The notes under the pieces were generated by a model that saw nothing but the letters and a program-made list of their open reading frames with translations, searched no databases and was not told the DNA's origin. Of a stretch of 64,000 bases of DNA, positions 2,440 to 61,127 are shown piece after piece (within the stretch, counting starts at the first letter, position 1; every line of letters starts with the position of its first letter). Source of the stretch: Sulfuritalea sp. GTDB taxonomy: Bacteria > Pseudomonadota > Gammaproteobacteria > Burkholderiales > Rhodocyclaceae. The DNA is taken from positions 2,428 to 66,427 of the forward strand of contig NZ_JASJPC010000018.1 of the NCBI RefSeq assembly GCF_031426875.1. The letters are read 5' to 3'. The position numbers and the translations under genes were made by a program.

Positions 2440-3587
2440 TCGGACAGGAGGCCTTCGAAAGTGAGTTCGTAGATGCGCGCCAGCGGTTCGAGATCGGCCA
2501 CCGCGATGCGTTCGTCCACCTTGTGGATGCTGGCGTTGGTCGGGCCGAACTCGACCAGTTGCGGGCAGATGTCGGCGATGAAGCGGCCGTCGGAAGTGCC
2601 GCCGGTGGTCGATAGTTCGATGGCGCCGCCGGTCACGGCCGCCGCCGCCGCGCTCAAGGCGTCGCAGAGTTCGCCGCGCGGCGTCAGGAAGGGTTTGGCG
2701 CCCAGCGTCCAGGCGATCTCGTATTCGAGCCCGTGGCGGTCGAGCAGGGCATGCACGCGGGATTGCAGGCTGTCCACGGTGCTGGCCGTGGAAAAGCGGA
2801 AGTTGAACATGATCTCGAAACTGCCGGGCACGACATTGCCGGCGCCCGTGCCGGCGTGGGCGTTGGAAATCTGGAAGCTGGTGGGCGGGAAATAGTCGTT
2901 GCCGGCGTCCCAGGTAGTTGCCGCGAGTTCGGCCAGCGCCGGTGCGGCGAGATGCACCGGATTCTTCACCAGATGCGGATAGGCGACATGGCCCTGCACG
3001 CCCTTGACGCGCAGCGTGGCCGAGAGCGAGCCGCGGCGGCCGTTCTTCATGGTGTCGCCGAGGCGGTCGACGCAGGTCGGCTCGCCGACGATGCAGAAGT
3101 CGATGATTTCGTTGCGCGCCTTGAGCGCTTCGACCACGCGCACCGTGCCGTCGACCGCATCGCCTTCCTCGTCGGAGGTCAGCAACAGCGCCAGGGAGTT
3201 GGCGCTGACGCCACGGCGCGCAATCAGGCGTTCCATGGCGACGATGGCGGCGGCGATCGAGCTTTTCATGTCGGCCGCGCCGCGACCGTAGAGCCAGCCG
3301 TCGCGCACGGTCGGCTCGAAAGGCGGCGAGGTCCATTGTTCCAGCGGGCCGGTGGGCACCACGTCGGTGTGGCCGGCAAAGCAGATCAGGCGGCCGGCGG
3401 GTTTGCCACCGGGTTTGCCACCCGCGTCGCGCCGCGCCCAGAGGTTAGAGACGCCGCCGGCATCGATGCGTTCGATGTGAAAACCCAGCCGGATCAGCCA
3501 GGAGGCGATCAGGTCGAGGCAGCCGGCATCGTCGGGCGTCACCGACGGGCGCGCGATCAGCGCCCTGGCTTTTTCCAGGACCGGCAT
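2436..3587 (-). CDS. dapE: Succinyl-diaminopimelate desuccinylase
   Basis: [50 protein letters not shown]. Confidence 0.95.
3196..3218 (+). repeat. 23-bp motif copy inside dapE (antisense)
   Basis: GAGTTGGCGCTGACGCCACGGCG. Confidence 0.8.
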
Positions 3588-5634: not shown

Positions 5635-6840
5635 TCAGAGAGATAGACAAAAATCGTTGATGCGGCGCGCGGCTTCGAGGCATTCCTGGTGCGGTGCGAC
5701 CAGCGCGATGCGGATGAAGTCGGCGCCCGGATTGATGCCGTTCGCTTCGCGCGCGAGGTAGCTGCCCGGCAGCACCACGACGTTCTTCTGGCGCAGCAGT
5801 TCGCGGGCGAATTCGGTGTCGGCGATCGGAGTCCTGGCCCAGAGGTAGAAGCCGGCATCCGGCACGCGGCAATCCAGGTGGCGGGCGATCAGCGGCGTGA
5901 CTTCATGGAATTTTTCGGCATACATGCGGCGGTTGTCGCGCACGTGGGCCTCGTCGCCCCAGGCGGCGATGCTGGCGGCCTGGACCGCCGGGTTCATGGC
6001 GCCGCCGTGGTAAGTGCGATAGAGCAGGAACTGCTTGAGCACGGCGGCATCGCCGGCGACGAAGCCCGAGCGCAGTCCCGGCACGTTGGAACGCTTGGAA
6101 AGGCTGGAGAAGGCGACGAGGTTGCGGTAGTCGGCGCGGCCCAGTTGCGCGGCGGCGGTGAGGCTGCCCAGGGGCGGCCGGCTTTCGTCGAAATAGATTT
6201 CCGAGTAGCACTCGTCCGAGGCGATGACGAAGCCATGACGGTCGGACAGCTCGAACAGGGCTTTCCAGGCGGCCAGGTCCATCACCTTGCCGGTTGGGTT
6301 GGCCGGCGAACAGACATAGACCAGTTGCACCTCGCGCCAGGTGCTCTGCGGCAGCGAGGCCCAGTCCATGTCGAAATCATTGTGCGGCAAGGTGTTGAGG
6401 TAGATGGGCTCGGCGCCGGCGAGCAGCGCGGCGCCTTCGTAGATCTGGTAGAAGGGATTGGGGCAGACCACCTTGGCGCCGCCGTTGCCACGATGGCGGC
6501 TGCGGTCGATGACGGTCTGGGCGAAGGCAAACAACGCTTCGCGCGAGCCATTCACCGGCACCACCTGGGTCGCCGCATCGGGTGCCGGCACGCCGTAGCG
6601 GCGTGCGATCCAGCCGGCGATGGCCTGGCGCAGCGCCTCCGAACCCTGCGTAGTCGGATAGTTGGCGAGCCCGGCGAGGTTGTCCGCCAGCGCGCGCTGG
6701 ATGAAAGGCGGCGTCGGATGCTGCGGCTCGCCGATCGACAGCTTGATCTCGCCGAGAGTTGGCGCTGGCGACACGCCGGCAAACAGCTGGCGCAGCTTTT
6801 CGAAGGGATAGGGCTGCAGGCGGGCGAGATCGGGATTCAC
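5635..6840 (-). CDS. dapC: Succinyldiaminopimelate transaminase
   Basis: GTG start, [38 protein letters not shown] (PLP lysine); first gene of dap operon. Confidence 0.92.
6756..6778 (+). repeat. 23-bp motif copy inside dapC (antisense)
   Basis: GAGTTGGCGCTGGCGACACGCCG. Confidence 0.8.
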
Positions 6841-12515: not shown

Positions 12516-12598
12516 GAGTTGGCGCTGATGAAGCAACTGCGCTACAAGGCGGTCGAGCAAACTACGCTCTCCTCGCCGTAGCGGATGGCGATACGGCG
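12516..12598 (+). repeat. 83-bp long form of the 23-bp motif, copy 1
   Basis: 69/83 identical to 54560-54642 by manual alignment; ends match the two halves of the short motif. Confidence 0.8.
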
Positions 12599-15718: not shown

Positions 15719-15741
15719 CGCCGTGGCGCCAGCGGCAACTT
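15719..15741 (-). repeat. 23-bp motif copy, intergenic
   Basis: rc AAGTTGCCGCTGGCGCCACGGCG. Confidence 0.75.
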
Positions 15742-18915: not shown

Positions 18916-18938
18916 AAGTTGGCGCTGGCGGCACGGCG
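18916..18938 (+). repeat. 23-bp motif copy, divergent intergenic
   Basis: AAGTTGGCGCTGGCGGCACGGCG. Confidence 0.8.
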
Positions 18939-22013: not shown

Positions 22014-22036
22014 GAGTTGGCGCTGGCGCCACGGCG
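22014..22036 (+). repeat. 23-bp motif copy, intergenic
   Basis: GAGTTGGCGCTGGCGCCACGGCG. Confidence 0.8.
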
Positions 22037-23842: not shown

Positions 23843-23865
23843 AAGTTGGCGCTGGCGCTACGGCG
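23843..23865 (+). repeat. 23-bp motif copy, tyrB/uvrB divergent intergenic
   Basis: AAGTTGGCGCTGGCGCTACGGCG. Confidence 0.8.
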
Positions 23866-26722: not shown

Positions 26723-29518
26723 TCAGTCGTGCTTGGTTTCCACCAGTTGCAGCGGCTCGTTGGGGATCACCGGCGCCGCCTTCGGCTTGCGGCCAAGAGG
26801 CTGTGTCGGGGCGAAGGTGTTCGCGACCGGTGCCGCATGGCTGGTTTCGATCATCACCAGGCCGACCTGCTGCAGGGATTCCTTGACATCGACCGGGGCG
26901 GGCTGCGGTGCCGGCGGCACGATGATCGGATCGGCAGCCGCCACGGGCTCAGGGGCCGCCGCGGCTTGCGGTGCGGCTTCCACGATGGGCTGCGGCGCTG
27001 GCGCCACAGGTGCCGGCGCGGTGACAGGTGCCACCGGTGCGACAGGCTCCGCCACGACGGCAGCCACCGACATCTCGACTTCAGGCGCGGCAGGCGCCGC
27101 GGCTTCGGCCGGGACTTCGGCTGCAACAACTGGCGTCGCGACCTGCTCCTGGACTGCTGTGGGGACCGCTTCGGCTATCGGAGCCCTTACCGGCTCGATT
27201 GCTGCCGCAGGCATAGCCACGGCGATGCCGGCTTCGTCGGTGACGGGCGCGGTGGCCTGAACGGCAACGAATCCTTCAGCTGCGGCTTCCGTCGTGCTGC
27301 CTTCCTCGCTGCGCCCACGGCCACGACCGCGGCCGCGACTGCGGCGTCCGCTGCGGGCTTCGCCTTCCTGGCCGGCGCCTTCGTTGCCGGGAGTTGGCGC
27401 TGGCGACACGCCATTCTGGGCGGCCTCGCCACGCGGCGGACGCGGTTCGCGCGGCTCGCGTGGCGGACGCGGTTCGCGGACTTCCTTCGGCTCCCGGGCT
27501 TCCCTGGGTTCGCGGGCCTCCTTGGGTTCCCTCGGCTCGCGTGGCTCACGCGGCTCGCGCGGTTTGCGGTTGCCCGTTTCGCCTTGGGTCTCGTCGCGCT
27601 TGCCTTGCGGGCGCGGAGTCTGCTCGCCGCGTTCCTTGCGCTCGCCGCCTTCGCGGTTGTCGCGACCGTCGCGACGACCATTGCGATCGCGGCCGCCACG
27701 GCCACCTTCGCGATTGCCATCGCGATTGCGGTCGCGCGAGCCTTCACGGCGCGGCGGCCGGTCGGCCTTGGCTTCGGCAGGTGCCGGTGCCGCGGGCGTC
27801 GCGCCGCCGGTGAAGAAGGACACCAGCTTGCTGAAGAAACCGGCTTCGCGGGCCGCCACGGGCTGGGCGACGGGCGCAACGGCCTTCGGCTCGACGATCG
27901 GCGCCGGCTGGTCGGGCGTGATGCCCTTGACCGCGGCTTCGATCTTGACCGGCTTGGCTTCGGCGTTGGCCGAGGGCGGCTGATAGGCTTCCTCGATCGG
28001 CTTTTCCGCCATCTGGTAGCTGGCGAGGACGACGCCCTCGGCATTCAGCTGATCGTGGCGCAGGCGGACGATTTCATGGGCCGGCGTCTCCAGGTGGCGG
28101 TTGGGCACGATCACCAGATTGACGCGGTGGCGCATCTCGATGCGCGAGATGTCGACGCGCTTTTCGTTGAGCAGGAAGGTGGCGACATCCACCGGGACCT
28201 GGCAATGCAGGGCGCCGGTGTTTTCCTTCATCGATTCCTCTTCGAGGATGCGCAGGATGTGCAGCGCGGCCGATTCGGTGCTGCGGATGTGGCCGGTGCC
28301 GGTGCAGCGCGGGCAGGTGATGTAGCTGGTTTCGGCAAGCGCCGGACGCAGGCGCTGGCGCGACAGTTCGAGCAGGCCGAAGCGGCTGATCTTGCCGGTC
28401 TGGACCCGGGCGCGGTCGAAGTGCAGGGCGTCGCGCAGGCGGTTCTCGACTTCACGCTGGTTCTTGGTCGATTCCATGTCGATGAAGTCGATCACGATCA
28501 GGCCGCCGAGGTCGCGCAGGCGCAACTGGCGGGCGATTTCGTCGGCGGCTTCGCAGTTGGTGCGCAGCGCCGTTTCCTCGATGTCGCTGCCTTTGGTGGC
28601 GCGGCCCGAGTTGACGTCGACCGAGACCAGGGCTTCGGTATGGTCGATGACGATGGCGCCGCCCGAAGGCAGCGTGACCTGGCGCGAGTAGGCCGATTCG
28701 ATCTGATGTTCGATCTGGAAGCGCGAGAACAGCGGCACGTCGTCGTGGTAGCGCTTGACGCGATTCACGGTGCCCGGCATCACGTGCGCCATGAACTGCT
28801 GCGCCTGTTCGAAGATGTCGTCGGTGTCGATCAGGATCTCGCCGATTTCGGAGTGGAAGTAGTCGCGGATGGCGCGGATCACCAGGCTGGATTCCTGGTA
28901 GATCAGGAAGGCGCCGCTCTGGGCCTTGGCCGCGCCGTCGATGGCGGTCCACAGTTGCAGCAGGTAGTTCAAGTCCCACTGCAGTTCTTCGAGGCTGCGG
29001 CCGATGCCGGCGGTGCGGGCGATCAGGCTGGTGCCGCTGGGAACCACGAGCTGGTCCATGATTTCGCGCAATTCCTGGCGGTCGTCGCCCTCGACACGGC
29101 GCGAAACGCCGCCGCCACGGGGATTGTTCGGCATCAGCACCAGGTAGCGGCCGGCCAGCGAGACATAGGTGGTCAGCGCCGCGCCCTTGTTGCCGCGCTC
29201 GTCCTTTTCGACCTGGACGATGAGTTCCTGGCCGTTGCTGAGCACGTCCTGGATGCGCGCCTTGCCGGCGTCGACGCCGGGCTTGAAATAGGTGCGGGAA
29301 ATTTCCTTGAACGGCAGGAAGCCGTGACGTTCGGCGCCATAGTCCACGAAGGCGGCTTCGAGGCTGGGCTCGATGCGCGTGATGACGGCCTTGTAGATGT
29401 TGCTCTTGCGCTGCTCTTTGTTGGCTGATTCGATGTCGAGGTCAATCAGCTTCTGACCATCGACGATCGCGACGCGGAGTTCCTCAGCCTGCGTCGCATT
29501 GAAAAGCATGCGTTTCAT
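26723..29518 (-). CDS. rne: Ribonuclease E
   Basis: [18 protein letters not shown]1 domain, DVNSG, DFIDM, CPRCTG Zn-link, disordered Arg/Pro-rich CTD. Confidence 0.97.
27391..27413 (+). repeat. 23-bp motif copy inside rne (antisense)
   Basis: GAGTTGGCGCTGGCGACACGCCA. Confidence 0.8.
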
Positions 29519-40256: not shown

Positions 40257-41894
40257 ATGAGCAATCCCTACGCCGCCGGCCTGGAGAAGAATCCGGCCAA
40301 TTATGTGCCGCTGACGCCGCTGACCTTCATCGAACGTTCCGCCTACATCTATTCCGAGCGCGTGGCGAGCATCCACGGCGCGCGCCGCTACACCTGGGCC
40401 CAGGCCTACGAGCGCAGCCGGCGCCTGGCCTCGGCGCTGGCGGCGCAAGGAGTTGGCGCTGGCGACACGGTGGCGGCGATGCTCAACAACACGCCCGAGA
40501 TGTTCGAATGCCATTTCGGCGTGCCGATGTGCGGCGCCGTGCTGAATACCCTGAACACGCGCCTCGACGCCGAATCGATCGCCTTCATGCTCAACCACGG
40601 CGAGGCCAAGGTGCTGATCACCGACCGCGAGTATTCGACGATGGTCAGAAAGGCCCTGGCCGAACTGGGGCGCAGCATCCTCGTCGTCGATGTCGACGAT
40701 CCCGAATACACCGGCCCCGGCGAGCGCCTGGGCACGCTCGACTATGAGAGCTTCCTCGCCACCGGCAATCCCGCCTACGCCTGGAAGACGCCGGCCGACG
40801 AGTGGGAAGCGATCTCGCTCAACTACACCTCGGGCACCACCGGCAACCCCAAGGGCGTGGTCTATCACCACCGCGGCGCTTATCTCAACGCGCTGTCCAA
40901 CATCGTCTCCTGGGGCATGCCGCCGCAGTCGATCTACCTGTGGACCCTGCCGATGTTCCATTGCAACGGCTGGTGCTTCCCCTGGACCGTGGCGGCCAAT
41001 TCCGGCACCAATGTCTGCCTGCGCCGCGTCGATCCCAAGCTGATTCTCGATGCCATCCGCGAGCACAAGGTCAGCCATTATTGCGGCGCGCCGATCGTGC
41101 ATTCGATGCTGATCAGCGCCCCGGCGGCCTGGCGCGAGGGCATCGAGCACAAGGTTTCGGCGCTGGTCGCCGCCGCGCCGCCGCCGGCCGCGGTGATCGA
41201 AGGCATGAACACGATCGGCTTCAACATCACCCATGTCTATGGCCTCACCGAAACCTATGGCCCGGCCGCGGTCTGCGCCAAGCACGAGGAATGGCTGGAA
41301 CTGCCGCTCGACGAACAGGTGCGCCTGAACGGCCGCCAGGGCGTGCGCTACCACTGCCAGGAAGGCATCACGGTGATGGACCCGGAAACCATGCTGCCGG
41401 TGCCCTGGGACGACCAGACCATGGGCGAGATCATGTTCCGCGGCAACATCGTGATGAAGGGCTACCTGAAGAATCCGAAGGCCACCGAAGAGGCCTTCCG
41501 CGGCGGCTGGTATCACACCGGCGACCTGGCCGTGATGCAGCCCGACGGCTACGTCAAGATCAAGGACCGCAGCAAGGACGTAATCATTTCGGGCGGCGAG
41601 AACATCTCCTCGATCGAGGTCGAGGACACGCTGTATCGCCATCCGGCGGTGATGGGCGCCGCCGTGGTCGCCACCCCCGACGAGAAGTGGGGCGAGGTGC
41701 CCTGCGCCTTCATCGAACTGCGCGAAGGTTCGACCGTCACGGCCGAGGAACTGACCGAGTTCTGCCGCGAGCGCATGGCGCGCTTCAAGGTGCCGAAGAA
41801 GTTCATCTTCGAGGCGCTGCCCAAGACCTCGACCGGCAAGATCCAGAAGTACGTGCTGCGCGAGAAGGCCAAGTCGGCCGCCGCGATCGAATAA
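40257..41894 (+). CDS. Acyl-CoA synthetase (AMP-binding)
   Basis: YTSGTTGNPKG, YGLTE, HTGDLA, IISGGENISS, PKTSTGKIQK. Confidence 0.93.
   Translation: MSNPYAAGLEKNPANYVPLTPLTFIERSAYIYSERVASIHGARRYTWAQAYERSRRLASALAAQGVGAGDTVAAMLNNTPEMFECHFGVPMCGAVLNTLNTRLDAESIAFMLNHGEAKVLITDREYSTMVRKALAELGRSILVVDVDDPEYTGPGERLGTLDYESFLATGNPAYAWKTPADEWEAISLNYTSGTTGNPKGVVYHHRGAYLNALSNIVSWGMPPQSIYLWTLPMFHCNGWCFPWTVAANSGTNVCLRRVDPKLILDAIREHKVSHYCGAPIVHSMLISAPAAWREGIEHKVSALVAAAPPPAAVIEGMNTIGFNITHVYGLTETYGPAAVCAKHEEWLELPLDEQVRLNGRQGVRYHCQEGITVMDPETMLPVPWDDQTMGEIMFRGNIVMKGYLKNPKATEEAFRGGWYHTGDLAVMQPDGYVKIKDRSKDVIISGGENISSIEVEDTLYRHPAVMGAAVVATPDEKWGEVPCAFIELREGSTVTAEELTEFCRERMARFKVPKKFIFEALPKTSTGKIQKYVLREKAKSAAAIE
40450..40472 (+). 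repeat. 23-bp motif copy inside acyl-CoA synthetase (sense)
   Basis: GAGTTGGCGCTGGCGACACGGTG. Confidence 0.8.
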
Positions 41895-44309
41895 GTGATC
41901 TGGCTGCCGCGCCTGGGCGCCGCGCTGCTGGCGCTGTTCGTCACCGCCGTCGCGCTCGCCGTGATCTGGTGGCAGCGCGTGACGCCGGTCAGCGAAGGGC
42001 GGCTGGAGGTCGCCGGACTCGCGGGTGAAGTCAGCATCGAGCGCGACGACAACGGCATTCCGACGCTGCGCGGCGCCAGTCGCGATGCCGTGCTGTTCGG
42101 CCTCGGCTTCGTCCATGCGCAGGATCGCCTGTGGCAGCTCGAAACGCATCGCCGCATCGGCTCCGGGCGGCTGGCGGAAGCCTTCGGCCCGGCCGCGCTG
42201 GACAACGACAGGTTTCTGCGCGCCCTCGGCGTGCGGCATGCCGCGACCGCACAATGGGTCGCGCTGGGCGCCGACGCGCGCGCCGCGGTTCTGGCCTATA
42301 CCGCCGGCATCAACGCCTACATCGCCGATCATTTGCGCGCCCGTCCGCCGGAATTCCTGATCCTCGGCCTGCAGCCGGAACCCTGGACGCCGGAGGACAC
42401 GCTGGCCTGGGGCATCATGATGGCCTGGGATCTCGGCGCCAACTGGACCAATGAACTGCTGCGCATGCGCCTCGCCCTGAGCCTGCCGGTGGCGCGCATC
42501 GACCAGTTGTTGCCGCCCTATCCCGGCCAGAAGCCGCTGCCCGTGCGCGACTATGCGGCGCTGTATCGCGAGCTGAAACTCAGCGGCGATCTCGGCCAGC
42601 AGGCCCTGCTCGACGCACCCGAATCCGGCGTCGAAGGCGTCGGTTCGAACAACTGGGTGGTGGCCGGTTCGCGCAGTGCATCGGGCAAGCCACTGCTGGC
42701 CAACGATCCGCATCTCAAGCTGACGACGCCGGCCCTGTGGTATTTCGCGCGCCTCGAAGCGCCCGGCCTCAAGATGGCGGGCGCCACCATGCCCGGCCTG
42801 CCGCTGCTGGTGCTGGGCCAGAACGAACGCATCGCCTGGGGCTTCACCAACACCAATCCCGACGTCCAGGACGTCTACCTCGAACAGATCAAGCCCGACG
42901 ATGCGACGCGCTATCGCACGCCCGACGGCTGGGCAGCGTTCCAGTCCTACACCGAGACCATCCGCGTCAAGGGCGGGGCCGACGTCACCCTGGTCACGCG
43001 GGCGACACGCCACGGGCCGGTGATTTCGGATGCCGGCACGCCGGTCGTCGCCGGCCTCACGGGAAAGCCGGGCGGCCCGGGCTATGCCCTGGCCCTGCGC
43101 TGGACGGCGCTGGATGCCGATGCCGCCAGCATCGATGGCGGGCTGGCGATCGGCGCTGCCGGATCGGTGGCCGAGTTCGTCGCGGCGGCGGAGAAGTACA
43201 AGGCGCCGATGCAGAACATGGTGGTGGCGGACGTCGCCGGCAGCATCGGCTTCATCGCCGCCGGGCGCGTGCCGCTGCGCGGCGCCGACAACGATCTGCA
43301 AGGCCAGGCGCCGGCGCCGGGCTGGGAGGCGCGCTACGACTGGATCGGCTTCGTCGATCCGGGCCAGACGCCGCGCGAGATCGACCCGCCGCGCGGCTGG
43401 ATCGCCACCGCCAATCACCGTGTCGCCAGCGCCAACTATCCGCATTACATCACCAGCGAATGGGCCTTGCCCTACCGCCAGCAGCGTATCGAGACCCTGC
43501 TCGCAGCGCAGCCGAAACACGACAAAGAAAGCCTGCGCCGCATCCAGGCCGATGTCCTTTCACCAGCGGCGCAGCGCCTGCTGCCCTGGCTGAAGAAGGC
43601 GCAGCCGACGCATGCGCTGGGAGCGGCCGCGACGCAGCGCCTGGCCGGCTTCGAGGGCGAAATGCGCGCGCTCGACGTCGCGCCGACCATCTTCGCCGCC
43701 TGGGCGCGCGAGCTGACGCGCGCGGTGTTCGCCGACGAAATGGGCGGCGACGAGATGTATTTGCGCCAGGTCGGCCGCGCCGATTTCCGTGCCGCGCTGG
43801 AAGGCGTGCTTGACCGCGACGATGCCTGGTGGTGCGACGACAAATCGACGCCGGCCGCGGAAACCTGCGCCGCGCTGGTCAACCGTTCGCTCGACCGCGC
43901 CCTCGACGAGTTGCAGCAACGCCTGGGGCCGGACATGGCGCGCTGGCACTGGGGCGTGGTGCATCTGGCACGCGCCGAGCACCGGCCGTTCTCCAAGGTC
44001 AGGGCGCTGGCGCCGTGGTTCGAACTGCGCGTCGCCACCGGCGGCGACAACTACACGGTGAATGTCGGCCGCTATCACCTCAAAGGCGACGAACCCTATC
44101 TCAACGAGCATGCCGCCAGCCTGCGCGCCATCTATGACCTGGGCAACCCCACGAACTCCGGCGTGATGCATTCGAGCGGACAGTCCGGCCTGGTGCTCTC
44201 GCCCGATTTCAGGCGTCTGCTCGAACCCTGGCAGGCGGTGCGCGATCTGCCGCTGTGGGGCGGCGGCGGCAAGAAACTGGTGCTGCAGGGCCGCCCTGCG
44301 GCAAAATGA
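41895..44309 (+). CDS. Penicillin acylase family (Ntn hydrolase)
   Basis: GFVHAQDRLWQ, GSNNW nucleophile, ANDPHL, GQSG; GTG start right after upstream stop. Confidence 0.9.
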   Translation: MIWLPRLGAALLALFVTAVALAVIWWQRVTPVSEGRLEVAGLAGEVSIERDDNGIPTLRGASRDAVLFGLGFVHAQDRLWQLETHRRIGSGRLAEAFGPAALDNDRFLRALGVRHAATAQWVALGADARAAVLAYTAGINAYIADHLRARPPEFLILGLQPEPWTPEDTLAWGIMMAWDLGANWTNELLRMRLALSLPVARIDQLLPPYPGQKPLPVRDYAALYRELKLSGDLGQQALLDAPESGVEGVGSNNWVVAGSRSASGKPLLANDPHLKLTTPALWYFARLEAPGLKMAGATMPGLPLLVLGQNERIAWGFTNTNPDVQDVYLEQIKPDDATRYRTPDGWAAFQSYTETIRVKGGADVTLVTRATRHGPVISDAGTPVVAGLTGKPGGPGYALALRWTALDADAASIDGGLAIGAAGSVAEFVAAAEKYKAPMQNMVVADVAGSIGFIAAGRVPLRGADNDLQGQAPAPGWEARYDWIGFVDPGQTPREIDPPRGWIATANHRVASANYPHYITSEWALPYRQQRIETLLAAQPKHDKESLRRIQADVLSPAAQRLLPWLKKAQPTHALGAAATQRLAGFEGEMRALDVAPTIFAAWARELTRAVFADEMGGDEMYLRQVGRADFRAALEGVLDRDDAWWCDDKSTPAAETCAALVNRSLDRALDELQQRLGPDMARWHWGVVHLARAEHRPFSKVRALAPWFELRVATGGDNYTVNVGRYHLKGDEPYLNEHAASLRAIYDLGNPTNSGVMHSSGQSGLVLSPDFRRLLEPWQAVRDLPLWGGGGKKLVLQGRPAAK
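43416..43438 (-). repeat. 23-bp motif copy inside penicillin acylase (antisense)
   Basis: rc TAGTTGGCGCTGGCGACACGGTG. Confidence 0.8.
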
Positions 44310-45163: not shown

Positions 45164-46342
45164 ATGGGCTTTGCTCCCTTTTCCATTTCCCGCCTGCCGC
45201 GGATCGAGTTCGGCCAGGGTTCCCTGGAACGCTTGCCCGACATCGCCGCCGGCTATGGCAAACGACTGCTGCTGGTCACCGGCGCACGCAGCTTTCTCGC
45301 CTCGGCCAATGCCGTGCGGCTGTTCGATGCCTTGCGCCAGCGCGGTTGCAGTTGGGAAATCGTCAAGATCACCGTCGAGCCGGCGCCGACTTTCATCGAC
45401 GCCACCGTCGCGGCGATGCGCGTCGAAGCATTCGACGCGGTGATCGGCATCGGCGGCGGCAGCGCGCTCGATGCGGCGAAAGCCATCGCCGCATTGCTGA
45501 AACCCGGCAATTCGGTGATGGATCACCTGGAAGGTGTCGGCCCCGAGCTGCCCTATGCCGGTCCGGCGACACCCTTCATTGCCGTTCCGACCACCGCCGG
45601 GACAGGCTCGGAAGCCACCAGGAACGCGGTGCTGTCGATCGAAGGGCGATTCAAGAAATCCTTCCGCGACGAAAAGCTGGTGGCCGAATGGGCCATCGTC
45701 GATCCCGAACTGATCTCCGGTTGTCCACCGCAGCTGGTCGCCGCCGATGGCATGGATGCCTTCACGCAGTTGCTCGAATCCTTCGTATCGACGCGCAGCA
45801 ATCCGATGACCGATGCGCTGGCGCGTTCCGGCATCATGGCCGTCAAGGACGGGCTGCTGTCGCTGTATGCGGCGCAGTCCGCAGCGGCGCGCGAGAAGAT
45901 GGCTTACGCATCGCTGCTGTCGGGCATCTGCCTGGCGCAGACCGGCCTCGGTTCGGTGCATGGCCTTGCTGCGCCGCTCGGCGCCTTCTTCCCCATTCCC
46001 CACGGCGCCGCCTGTGGCACGCTGGTGGCAACGGCGACGGCCGCCAACATCGAGGCGCTGGAAAGGCGCGAACCCGACAATCCTGCGCTGCCGAAATACG
46101 CCGAGATAGGCCGTCGTTTCGCCATGCAGAAAGGCTTGAACGGGCGCGACGCGCGCAGCTTCCTCGTCAGCACCTTGCGGCAGTGGGAGCAGACGCTGGC
46201 CTTGCCCCGTCTGTCGCATTGGCGTGTCGCCAGCGCCGACTTTCCGCGCATCGTGGCGAATTGCCGCGGCAGCAGCATGAAGACCAACCCGATCGTGCTC
46301 ACCGACGAGGAGCTTGTCGGGGTGCTGGCAGCTAGGCTCTAG
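45164..46342 (+). CDS. Iron-containing alcohol dehydrogenase
   Basis: GGGSALD, PTTAGTGSE, DAFTQ, H..A, HG.AC. Confidence 0.9.
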   Translation: MGFAPFSISRLPRIEFGQGSLERLPDIAAGYGKRLLLVTGARSFLASANAVRLFDALRQRGCSWEIVKITVEPAPTFIDATVAAMRVEAFDAVIGIGGGSALDAAKAIAALLKPGNSVMDHLEGVGPELPYAGPATPFIAVPTTAGTGSEATRNAVLSIEGRFKKSFRDEKLVAEWAIVDPELISGCPPQLVAADGMDAFTQLLESFVSTRSNPMTDALARSGIMAVKDGLLSLYAAQSAAAREKMAYASLLSGICLAQTGLGSVHGLAAPLGAFFPIPHGAACGTLVATATAANIEALERREPDNPALPKYAEIGRRFAMQKGLNGRDARSFLVSTLRQWEQTLALPRLSHWRVASADFPRIVANCRGSSMKTNPIVLTDEELVGVLAARL

Positions 46343-52838: not shown

Positions 52839-54533
<1,695 letters not shown>

Positions 54534-54559
54534 TGCGCGAGGTGTCCAGATGTCTCGCC

Positions 54560-54642
54560 AAGTCGGCGCTGATGAAGCCCCTGCGCAGCAGGGCGGTCGG
54601 GCAAAGAACGCTCTCCTCGCCGCTGCGGATGGCGGCACGGCG
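54560..54642 (+). repeat. 83-bp long form of the 23-bp motif, copy 2
   Basis: 69/83 identical to 12516-12598. Confidence 0.8.
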
Positions 54643-54683
54643 CAGCGGGCCGTATATGCGATTCAAATTGCGGGAGCGGAAGC

Positions 54684-54992
54684 ATGCTTGACTGGATGGT
54701 ATGGACTACGCCGGTGGCGGTGTTTTTCAGCTGCATTGCATTGATGCTGGCAGGGATGACCATATGGGAAATCAAGTCGCCGACGACGCTGCGCAAGGGT
54801 TTCCTGCCGATCGCCACGACGCGCGGCGATCGGCTGTTCATCGGACTGCTCGGCGCCGCATACATAAACCTGGCGTTCGTCGGGCTGTCGGGAAAATTCG
54901 CGGAGTGGCTGCAGCTTGAACAGGATCCGAGTGTCTGGATCAGTTTTGCAATTTCGATAGCGGCACTGGTGCTGGTAATGAGGAAGGGCTGA
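54684..54992 (+). CDS. DUF2160 small integral membrane protein (GlpU-like)
   Basis: WMVWT.P.A.FF, RKGFLPI.TTRGDRLFIGLL. Confidence 0.85.
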   Translation: MLDWMVWTTPVAVFFSCIALMLAGMTIWEIKSPTTLRKGFLPIATTRGDRLFIGLLGAAYINLAFVGLSGKFAEWLQLEQDPSVWISFAISIAALVLVMRKG

Positions 54993-55081
54993 AGCGCTTC
55001 TTGGAATCCGGCCCGAAGCTTTCCCGGGGCCGTGGTGACCAACACTACACACGGGGAGGCCTATGCACGAGGAGATGAACA

Positions 55082-56812
<1,731 letters not shown>

Positions 56813-59837: not shown

Positions 59838-61127
59838 ATGAGTCGGAGCGTTCTTGCCGAAGGCGTCAAGCCGCGCGAGGTCTGGGCCTGGGCCATGTAC
59901 GACTTCGCCAACTCGGCCTACACGACGACCGTGGTGACGGCGATCTTCAACGCCTATTTCGTCGCCGTAGTGGCCGGCGGCGCGGCCTGGGCGACGCTGG
60001 CCTGGACCACCACGCAGGCCATCGCCAGCATCGCCATCATGCTCACCGCGGCCAGTGTCGGCGCCTGGGCCGATCGCCATGGCAACAAGAAGAAATTGCT
60101 GGCCATCACCACCGTCGGTTGCGTCGCGGCTACCGCGTTGCTGTACTGGGTCGGTCCCGGCGACGTGGTGCTGGCCATGTGCCTGGTGGCGATCGCCAGC
60201 TTCTTTTTCGGCAGCGGCGAAAACATCATCGCCGCCTTCCTGCCGGAGCTGGCCGGCGACGAGGATCTGGGCAAGGTTTCCGGCTGGGGCTGGAGCTGGG
60301 GTTATCTGGGGGGCATGAGCTGTCTCGGTCTTTGTCTGGCCTGGATCGTCGCCGCCAAGGGGCGCGGCGAGGGCGCCGAAAGCTTCGTCCCCGCGGCCAT
60401 GCTGATCACCGCCGTGTTCTTCGCCGTGGCGTCAGCGCCAACTTTCCTGCTCCTGCGCGAACGCGTGGCGGCGCGGCCGGTGGCGGCGGCCGGCGCCGAA
60501 TTCGCGGCGCTGGCGCAGCGGCTGCGGCGCACCCTGCACGAGGTGCGGCGCTTTCCCGACATGGCGCGTTTCCTGGTCTGCCTGCTGTGCTACCAATCGG
60601 GAGTCTTCGCCGCCATCGCGCTGGCCGCCATCTACGCGCAGGAAGCGATCGGCTTCACCGCGGAGGACAACATCAAGCTGTTCTTCGTGGTGAATGGCAC
60701 GGCGGCGGTCGGCGCCTTCGCCTTCGGTTACGTGCAGGACCGGCTCGGCCATGTGCGCACCATCGCCCTGACCCTGGCCGGCTGGCTGCTGATGACGGCG
60801 ATTGCCCTGGGTTCGGATAGCCGCGGGCAGTTCTGGGTGGCGGCCAACATCGCCGGCCTCTGTCTCGGTTCCAGCCAGTCCGCCTCGCGGGCGCTGGTGG
60901 GCTTCTTCGCGCCTGTGCAGCGGCGCGCCGAATTCTTCGGGCTCTGGGGCCTGGCCATGAAGCTCGCGGCCATCGCCGGGCCGATGACCTACGGCCTGAC
61001 GACCTGGCTGTCGGGCGGCAACCACCGCCTGGCGCTGGGGATCACCGGGCTGTATTTCGTCGGCGGACTGCTGCTGCTGATCGGCATCGATGCCAGGCGC
61101 GGCCGCGCCGCCGCGCTGGCAGACTGA
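59838..61127 (+). CDS. MFS transporter (UMF1-like)
   Basis: WAMYDFANSAY, about 12 hydrophobic segments, QSASRAL, EFFGLW. Confidence 0.88.
   Translation: MSRSVLAEGVKPREVWAWAMYDFANSAYTTTVVTAIFNAYFVAVVAGGAAWATLAWTTTQAIASIAIMLTAASVGAWADRHGNKKKLLAITTVGCVAATALLYWVGPGDVVLAMCLVAIASFFFGSGENIIAAFLPELAGDEDLGKVSGWGWSWGYLGGMSCLGLCLAWIVAAKGRGEGAESFVPAAMLITAVFFAVASAPTFLLLRERVAARPVAAAGAEFAALAQRLRRTLHEVRRFPDMARFLVCLLCYQSGVFAAIALAAIYAQEAIGFTAEDNIKLFFVVNGTAAVGAFAFGYVQDRLGHVRTIALTLAGWLLMTAIALGSDSRGQFWVAANIAGLCLGSSQSASRALVGFFAPVQRRAEFFGLWGLAMKLAAIAGPMTYGLTTWLSGGNHRLALGITGLYFVGGLLLLIGIDARRGRAAALAD
60422..60444 (-). repeat. 23-bp motif copy inside MFS gene (antisense)
   Basis: rc AAGTTGGCGCTGACGCCACGGCG. Confidence 0.8.

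Follow-up and report, generated by a model that had tools for sequence, protein, structure and literature searches.

A recently active 60-nt mobile element that splits an abundant short motif in Sulfuritalea sp.

The 64,000-nt stretch of Sulfuritalea sp. DNA analysed here (the window) contains two 83-bp stretches in which a short, abundant motif is interrupted by 60 nt. This insert is mobile DNA that has been active recently, and it results from insertion rather than representing a form whose excision leaves a scar. The explanation that we favour, and consider very probable, is that the 60 nt constitute a non-autonomous mobile hairpin element, integrating at the centre of a motif that was already in place. 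Comparison of copies and of orthologous sites establishes the insertion, its target and orientation, the structure of the element and its recent activity.

With regard to the layout, the initial annotation had correctly described window 12516-12598 (copy A) and 54560-54642 (copy B) as two stretches of 83 bp that agree at 69 positions; their flanks, compared over 40 bp on each side, show no relation (12/40 and 9/40 identical). In both, a left motif half, RAGTYGGCGC, is followed by the 60 nt (TGATGAAGC...GCGGA) and by a right half, TGGCGRYACGGCG, and taking the 60 nt out restores the short motif exactly, as had been noticed. Copy A is located between the gene of an SNase homologue and selO, both on the minus strand, and is antisense to the two of them, and copy B stands in sense orientation between an ABC permease gene and a DUF2160 gene. 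The TG found at both junctions, initially read as a possible 2-bp target duplication, is indeed present in the motif, but sites outside the motif share the T alone: nested copies read GCTC^TCC, and tRNA sites GCTC^TAC, ^TTC or ^TGC. That TG recurs in the motif is hence a coincidence, and these sites refute a 2-bp duplication. In the same way, an insert starting and ending with ATG is one of three equivalent placements of an ambiguous boundary, but it marks no conserved ORF. The frame of copy A runs from ATG to TAG after 17 codons, and copy B has no stop there. A protein-coding mini-ORF was rejected, since the in-frame TAG of TA-type copies is lacking in CT-type copies, and the variation is compensatory in the stems.

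Table 1. Positions in the window of the two element copies, their motif halves and the uninterrupted motif copies.
Feature	Position	Strand	Remark
Left half of short motif (GAGTTGGCGC), copy A	12516..12525	+	contiguous with right half in four sister species and G044
60-nt element, copy A, TA-type stem	12526..12585	+	exactly absent in G039, G001, G038, G041, G044 and run X5 contig
Compound hairpin, copy A: CGCTAC / AA bulge / GGCG / GAGC-N7-GCTC inner / CGCC / GTAGCG	12540..12583	+	covariation, 60 copies
Right half of short motif (TGGCGATACGGCG), copy A	12586..12598	+	
Left half of short motif (AAGTCGGCGC), copy B	54560..54569	+	
60-nt element, copy B, CT-type stem	54570..54629	+	
Compound hairpin, copy B (CGCAGC...GCTGCG)	54584..54627	+	
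Right half of short motif (TGGCGGCACGGCG), copy B	54630..54642	+	
Short motif, uninterrupted, potential target	3196..3218	+	orthologous in other species
Short motif, uninterrupted, in gene	6756..6778	+	orthologous in G039, G014, G002, G011
Short motif, uninterrupted	15719..15741	-	
Short motif, uninterrupted	18916..18938	+	
Short motif, uninterrupted	22014..22036	+	
Short motif, uninterrupted	23843..23865	+	
Short motif, uninterrupted, in gene	27391..27413	+	
Short motif, uninterrupted, in acyl-CoA ligase gene (GVGAGDTV)	40450..40472	+	synonymous GTC>GTT, GCC>GCT
Short motif, uninterrupted, in gene	43416..43438	-	
Short motif, uninterrupted	46220..46242	-	
Short motif, uninterrupted, in gene	60422..60444	-	

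Orthologous loci turned out to be polymorphic for the long and the short form, three filled sites having empty counterparts with an intact motif in sister species. At the site of copy A, exactly the 60 nt are missing from the four closest species (G039, G001, G038 and G041; flanks approximately 92-97% identical), which carry the intact short motif, and the motif is likewise intact in the distant G044, at approximately 73% local identity. Furthermore, a contig from an independent metagenome (run X5) passes directly from 12525 to 12586, leaving out the 60 nt, and its right flank differs at 1 of 265 bases. The site of the copy at C43:9239 is empty, with the motif intact, in G001, G041 and G038, and so is that of a 120-nt nested dimer at C43:20273 in G001 and G039. 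From these three filled sites opposite empty ones it follows that the mobile unit measures 60 or 120 nt, and not 83. For a further copy, at C43:40017, the right flank has no counterpart in the relatives searched.

The copy at C43:9239 lies inside the gene of a 644-aa AMP-binding enzyme (Pfam PF00501, E 1e-47, one continuous match), where it is in frame, adds 20 residues without a stop and leaves the gene intact; the sister species read ...EKVGAGDTA... at this site. As read from the sequence, five out of six frames are open across the element, which is unremarkable at 65% G+C. For the locus of copy B, no orthologue was present among 40 genomes of the genus. The closest homologue of its operon, in another genus and approximately 90% identical, has a 38-nt spacer without the motif, versus a spacer of 150 nt in the genome studied (G000), which includes motif and element; no other observation would allow the motif to have come in with the insert. 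The ABC transporter operon around copy B (window 53694-56812; permease, permease, DUF2160 and solute-binding protein) has a lower G+C of 0.61 and looks horizontally acquired, though with motif and element in its expanded spacer.

When the genome (a 4.84-Mb assembly) was searched by BLAST with the insert alone, 23 loci were found, so the family is not limited to the two copies of the window. Twenty of them are flanked by both motif halves, all in one relative orientation and three as nested dimers, and the other three lie outside the motif, at C^TGA sites; for subfamily A, 20 of 21 loci are in the motif. Additional copies occur in MAGs labelled Rugosibacter, Sulfurisoma, Sulfurimicrobium, Sideroxydans and Propionivibrio. 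A cross-genus sample, drawn on the conserved 5' 21-mer and blind to flanks, yielded 29 subfamily-A copies in the motif, 16 nested in the loop of another copy and two elsewhere, the orientation being the same at 49 of 49 motif-flanked loci (20 in G000 and 29 in this sample). The proposal of a mini-element targeting the motif is thus borne out by empty orthologous sites, nesting, single orientation and occurrence in several genera.

All left junctions read C^T, within GGCGC^TGG in the motif and ACGCTC^TCC in the loop of the element itself, and the right junction reads A^T. As GCKC^T is commonest at the centre of the 22-26-nt motif (..GGCGC^TGGCG..), almost every copy splits a motif, and as the loop holds GCTC^T, copies nest. 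In nested copies, whose stem types match, the order is outer-L, inner-L, inner-R, outer-R, an arrangement predicted by loop insertion and not by tandem duplication. Many loci carry the nested 120-nt dimer, which may itself be a unit of spread. Sister subfamilies have the same ends and a different inner hairpin; their sites, NNNC^T(GA), often coincide exactly with a gene stop codon and are found at orthologous gene ends in several species. Internally deleted remnants (18 nt at C8:157783 of G000, and 20-nt end-junction units in C44) and head-to-tail triple arrays (L119) were also detected.

Of note, sister-subfamily elements form a composite pile-up at C44:41349-41570 and on the minus strand of C8, around 236050, in G000. 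There, one element, TGATGAGACCCC...GCTGTGGA, has entered another after GCCCC^TGCG, and the pile-up continues with tandem 20-nt units, in which the 3' end is joined to the 5' end (C44:41526-41565); the gene upstream of C44:41349 takes its stop codon from the first TGA of the element. Another locus, L109:900-5600, from a MAG labelled Pseudomonadota bacterium (JBDRPN010000044.1), is an array of more than 22 tRNA genes, five of which, including those for Ile-GAU, Arg-ACG and Val-UAC, are interrupted between D-loop and D-stem by a 59-60-nt sister-subfamily element. All five insertions are antisense to the tRNA, at sites G(C/T)GCTC^T.

The structure of the element was modelled as a 14-pair, three-segment hairpin on an alignment of 60 distinct copies. 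In this alignment, 97% of cells are paired and 10 of the 14 pairs show changes on both sides; none of 500 shuffles matched the observed pairing values, and the signal collapses when the partners are slid. The TA/AG and TA/CT differences between copies A and B, for which the initial annotation had proposed a covariation test, are compensatory in the stem. The 14-nt 5' tail (TGATGAAGCCCCTG) is nearly invariant and unpaired, the 3' tail amounts to 2 nt (GA), and these two termini are the best conserved parts across the superfamily. Minimum free energies did not differ significantly from those of shuffles, as RNA or as DNA and on either strand, and the hairpin is accordingly derived from covariation only. 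Two known classes were compared and set aside: the integron attC, both of whose R''/R' cores, RYYYAAC ... GTTRRRY, are absent from the consensus, and a DDE-type MITE, given a 14-nt 5' tail with no inverted partner at the 3' end and the refuted 2-bp duplication.

The uninterrupted motif has the consensus CRAR-AGTTGGCGCTGGCG-NN-ACGGCG. Allowing up to 3 mismatches, 11 copies are present in the window against 0.01 expected by chance, and 685 in the 4.84-Mb assembly, an excess of about 30:1 over the long form. About half of the copies lie in long high-GC3 ORFs, where all six frames are used with a bias to mild peptides; motif orientation is unbiased with respect to GC skew. Orthologous motif sites are found across species, down to approximately 73% local identity, with a 'dialect' that differs by species (AGTT versus AGTC), and 20 kb of synteny revealed no differences in the presence of the motif. 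In the acyl-CoA ligase gene, the motif was born by the synonymous changes GTC>GTT and GCC>GCT on a conserved GVGAGDTV, with no indels. Within the family, it is abundant in several other genera, and rare or absent elsewhere. Three genomes (G053, G155 and G071) are motif-rich, with 243, 159 and 62 copies, yet gave no match to the long form. A reading of the motif as a 5-bp hairpin was discarded, as its pairs do not covary and include a fixed T.G. Tight clusters of perfect motif copies were noticed in motif-poor genomes (G138:C7:868023-868749; G159:C1:1461265-1502264; G063:C1:82967-98126, the last also holding the long form), as expected of islands imported from motif-rich lineages. The motif is older and wider than the element, which exploits it and does not explain its birth. 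Because the element depends on the motif and not the reverse, the origin of the motif has to be sought elsewhere, in an uptake-type drive or an enzyme-site system.

These data bear on two accounts in which the relation of insert and motif is a different one. The initial annotation had also considered the long form as a parent whose precise excision leaves the short motif as a scar, and had seen in either of its readings a birth mechanism for the motif; in a variant, the 83-bp unit moves along with its motif arms. This account is already largely refuted, and we give it hardly any credence. It would agree with the exact regeneration of the motif on removal of the 60 nt and with the short, motif-free spacer in the homologue of the copy B operon, but it is contradicted by the 685 short copies against 23 long loci, by the three filled sites that face empty sites with an intact motif, by the orthology of motif sites with constant presence across the synteny, and by the synonymous origin of the motif in genes. 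The motif-rich genomes that gave no long-form match speak against it and against the insert as an explanation of the birth of the motif, and a second, unrelated hairpin family at the same motif centre (see below) is equally at odds with it. Alternatively, the insert might spread among motifs by homologous recombination or gene conversion through their identical 11-14-bp arms, with no dedicated transposition. Hundreds of motif copies with identical short arms would offer the substrate, and nearly all subfamily-A loci do lie in the motif; we nevertheless judge this very improbable, because the element is also found at sites, its own loop among them, that have no more than GCKC^T in common with the motif, because sister subfamilies sit at tRNA D-arms and gene stops, and because the arms are far shorter than those usual for RecA, whose homology requirement is far above 11-14 bp.

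As to how the element moves, the features described above give the following picture. The element comprises a single-stranded 14-nt 5' tail, the three-segment hairpin kept by compensatory changes and the GA 3' tail; it integrates seamlessly between C and T, at GCKC^T in the case of subfamily A, in one orientation and with at most one base duplicated. A strand-specific nuclease-ligase acting on folded single-stranded DNA would move it in trans. The best candidate for this enzyme is an HUH/Y1 (RAYT or IS200-like) transposase, an assignment that we regard as quite possible and put forward tentatively. TnpA_REP is a nuclease of single-stranded DNA that cuts at CT next to a hairpin and is capable of strand transfer (PMC3479197, PMC3333891, PMC8266576). 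Four Y1 genes are present in G000, namely one classical RAYT and three RAYT-like genes, and the short motif is found at most 250 nt downstream, in the same orientation, of 12 of the 28 RAYT-like genes in the genus, far above its background density. Against a Y1 mover, the ends of the element are unlike those of the RAYT-like units and unlike the classical REPs of G000, and a search at E<=1e-40 finds no RAYT-like gene in 15 of the 41 genomes of the genus, of which at least three carry the element (G005, G013 and G043). The gene is also common in genera free of the element, and its phyletic association with the latter is unspecific. The orientation of the element agrees with the local GC skew for 17 copies and disagrees for 11, in a draft assembly of weak skew. 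A longer version with a recombinase or transposase, another possibility raised initially, was not found in G000; the pairing of 5' and 3' ends there, in which the 3' pattern is noisy, revealed no autonomous form.

The RAYT-like Y1 genes code for approximately 245 aa (L221-L250; C30:12829-13557, C37:4104-4577 and C56:3470-4192 in G000), in IS-like units bounded by CCAAAGGGGTCAG...CTGACCCCTTTGG, which are multi-copy in some genomes. The classical RAYT gene, at C72:13778-14026 of G000, has arrays of GTAGGGCCGACTTCAGTCGGCC REPs on both flanks, and the two together are a separate, conventional REP system in the same genome.

Two further explanations have to be weighed against transposition of folded single-stranded DNA by a Y1-type enzyme. 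One is site-specific recombination of a small circular intermediate, whose joined ends (..GCTGCGGA-TGATGAAGCCCCTG..) would be the donor and share a T(G) core with the target, catalysed for instance by an IS110-like bridge-RNA enzyme or by a tyrosine or serine recombinase. We consider it unlikely, though worth keeping in view: the best-conserved termini would become contiguous in the circle, TG (motif) or TGA (stop-codon sites) at both junctions resembles a crossover core, insertion is orientation-specific, and a circular intermediate accounts for the triple head-to-tail arrays and the tandem 20-nt units made of junctions only no less well than a Y1 enzyme does. However, nested and tRNA sites share a single base, which fits a 2-bp core poorly, a double-strand site-specific recombination does not require a strongly selected hairpin, and no IS110-family transposase (PF01548) was found in G000, which is a draft MAG; an IS91 transposase (PF04986) was not found there either, in a search whose control was uninformative. 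According to the other explanation, the 60 nt act mainly as a structured RNA with a function, be it in stabilising 3' UTRs, as a small RNA or as a ribozyme, and the copies reflect selection for this role instead of mobility. The strong covariation of the hairpin, the many copies lying 12-60 nt past a stop codon in sense orientation, and the subfamily B copies kept at orthologous gene ends in several species, where they provide the TGA stop, are in line with it, and the 5' CUGAUGA recalls a hammerhead core or a C box. But a hammerhead ribozyme was rejected, with no conserved GAAA and no three-way junction in what is a single rod-like hairpin, and so was a C/D-box k-turn, with no terminal stem when checked by hand against the alignment; Rfam returned no match to the element at gathering or permissive thresholds (E up to 10). 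Moreover, copies stand in either orientation to their host genes, copy A and all five tRNA insertions being antisense, and A.C mismatches outnumber G.U on the given strand of the 60-copy alignment, which does not favour RNA on that strand. Empty/filled polymorphism would be left unexplained as well, and we find this account improbable, although an RNA role may exist as a secondary effect of a mobile element.

The motif centre is also occupied by a second, unrelated hairpin insert ('family 2'), TGCCGGCCCGCGAAGCGGAATCCCCGGCAGACAGAGTC, located between ..AGTTGGCGCT and CGNNACGGCG. G000 has 23 copies of it (e.g. C7:14915 and C6:14446), some with a nested inverted copy; one is on the contig of the window but outside the latter (C18:145068). 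Sister species carry the plain motif (AGTTGGCGCTGACGACACGGCG) at the C7 locus, and the family-2 insert thus corresponds to 38 nt replacing 2 nt of the motif. Conceivably, though in our view this is rather unlikely, a lineage-specific single-strand nuclease-ligase would recognise and nick the motif, this enzyme-site pair would be parasitised by at least two unrelated, ultra-small hairpin elements (the 60-mer and the 38-nt family 2) homing to one central position, and the motif, the adjoining RAYT-like genes and the inserts would make up one undescribed system; the 60-mer would then be among the smallest site-specific mobile DNAs known. Beside a family-2 copy, a stretch of approximately 170 nt (L253:266-440; C6:14215-14389 in G000) recurs with 77-85% identity at several unrelated loci in G001, G002, G038 and G039, and is probably another interspersed repeat.

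The interest of the case lies in a documented, very recent and highly site-specific mobility of a 60-nt element devoid of coding capacity, accompanied by clear-cut alleles with and without the insert, by self-nesting, by an insertion in frame within a gene and by others in tRNA genes. The mobility of the element and the origin of the motif are now separate questions. For the former, the exact C^T junctions and the invariant 14-nt tail provide direct handles for tracing the mobilising enzyme, which, if it proved to be a programmable single-strand nuclease-ligase, might interest the builders of DNA-insertion tools.

Among known systems, the motif invites comparison with the DNA uptake sequences DUS/USS, which it resembles by its hundreds of copies on both strands, in and between genes (PMC2817400, PMC3630211), by frames biased to harmless peptides, by species 'dialects' and by a patchy taxonomic distribution. 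It is, however, twice as long as known uptake sequences; its features would fit an uptake-sequence reading, which we offer as a lead only. With regard to the element, REPs and REPINs are short hairpin repeats thought to be moved in trans by the Y1 HUH enzyme TnpA_REP, or RAYT (PMC3479197, PMC3333891, PMC8266576, PMC3116915). The element may resemble them in its hairpin under selection and in left junctions at C^T, the dinucleotide at which TnpA_REP cuts single-stranded DNA beside a hairpin. In contrast to REPs, the element has no GTAG guide 5' of its stem (..CCCCTG stands there, and GTAG is found only within the 3' stem of the TA-type) and flanks no RAYT gene, the C72 RAYT having GTAGGGCCGACTTCAGTCGGCC repeats and the RAYT-like genes other ends; it has only about 23 copies per genome, nests directly instead of forming inverted doublets, and also occurs inside genes.

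The PATEs, palindrome-associated mini-elements derived from IS200/IS605, share with the element a seamless, single-orientation insertion next to a short specific target, free of duplication, and hairpins as recognition structure; here, the filled sites are longer than the empty ones by exactly 60 or 120 nt, in one orientation and at GCKC^T. The element differs from them in having one compound hairpin instead of separate left and right end hairpins, and in an unusually small size of 60 nt. No parental IS with matching ends was found in G000, the ends of the Y1 units being unrelated, and no replication-strand bias was detected at the weak skew of the draft assembly. The terminal inverted repeats and target duplications of DDE-type MITEs are absent from it. 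The use of a high-copy genomic repeat as landing pad is shared with IS1397, ISKpn1 and ISPpu9/10, insertion sequences that target REP sequences (PMC1525189, PMC12288879), but these are full-length, encode their own transposase and have palindromic targets, whereas the element is non-coding and its target non-palindromic. Rickettsia palindromic elements are small palindromic selfish DNA present in frame within protein genes without breaking them (PMC10969869), in the manner of the 60-nt copy that extends the intact AMP-binding enzyme; they are unrelated in sequence, measure 100-150 bp and do not home to one motif. Set beside these systems, the element is a small non-autonomous hairpin mobile DNA that stands out because it is 60 nt long, homes to an abundant non-palindromic motif, nests in its own copies and is tolerated in genes.
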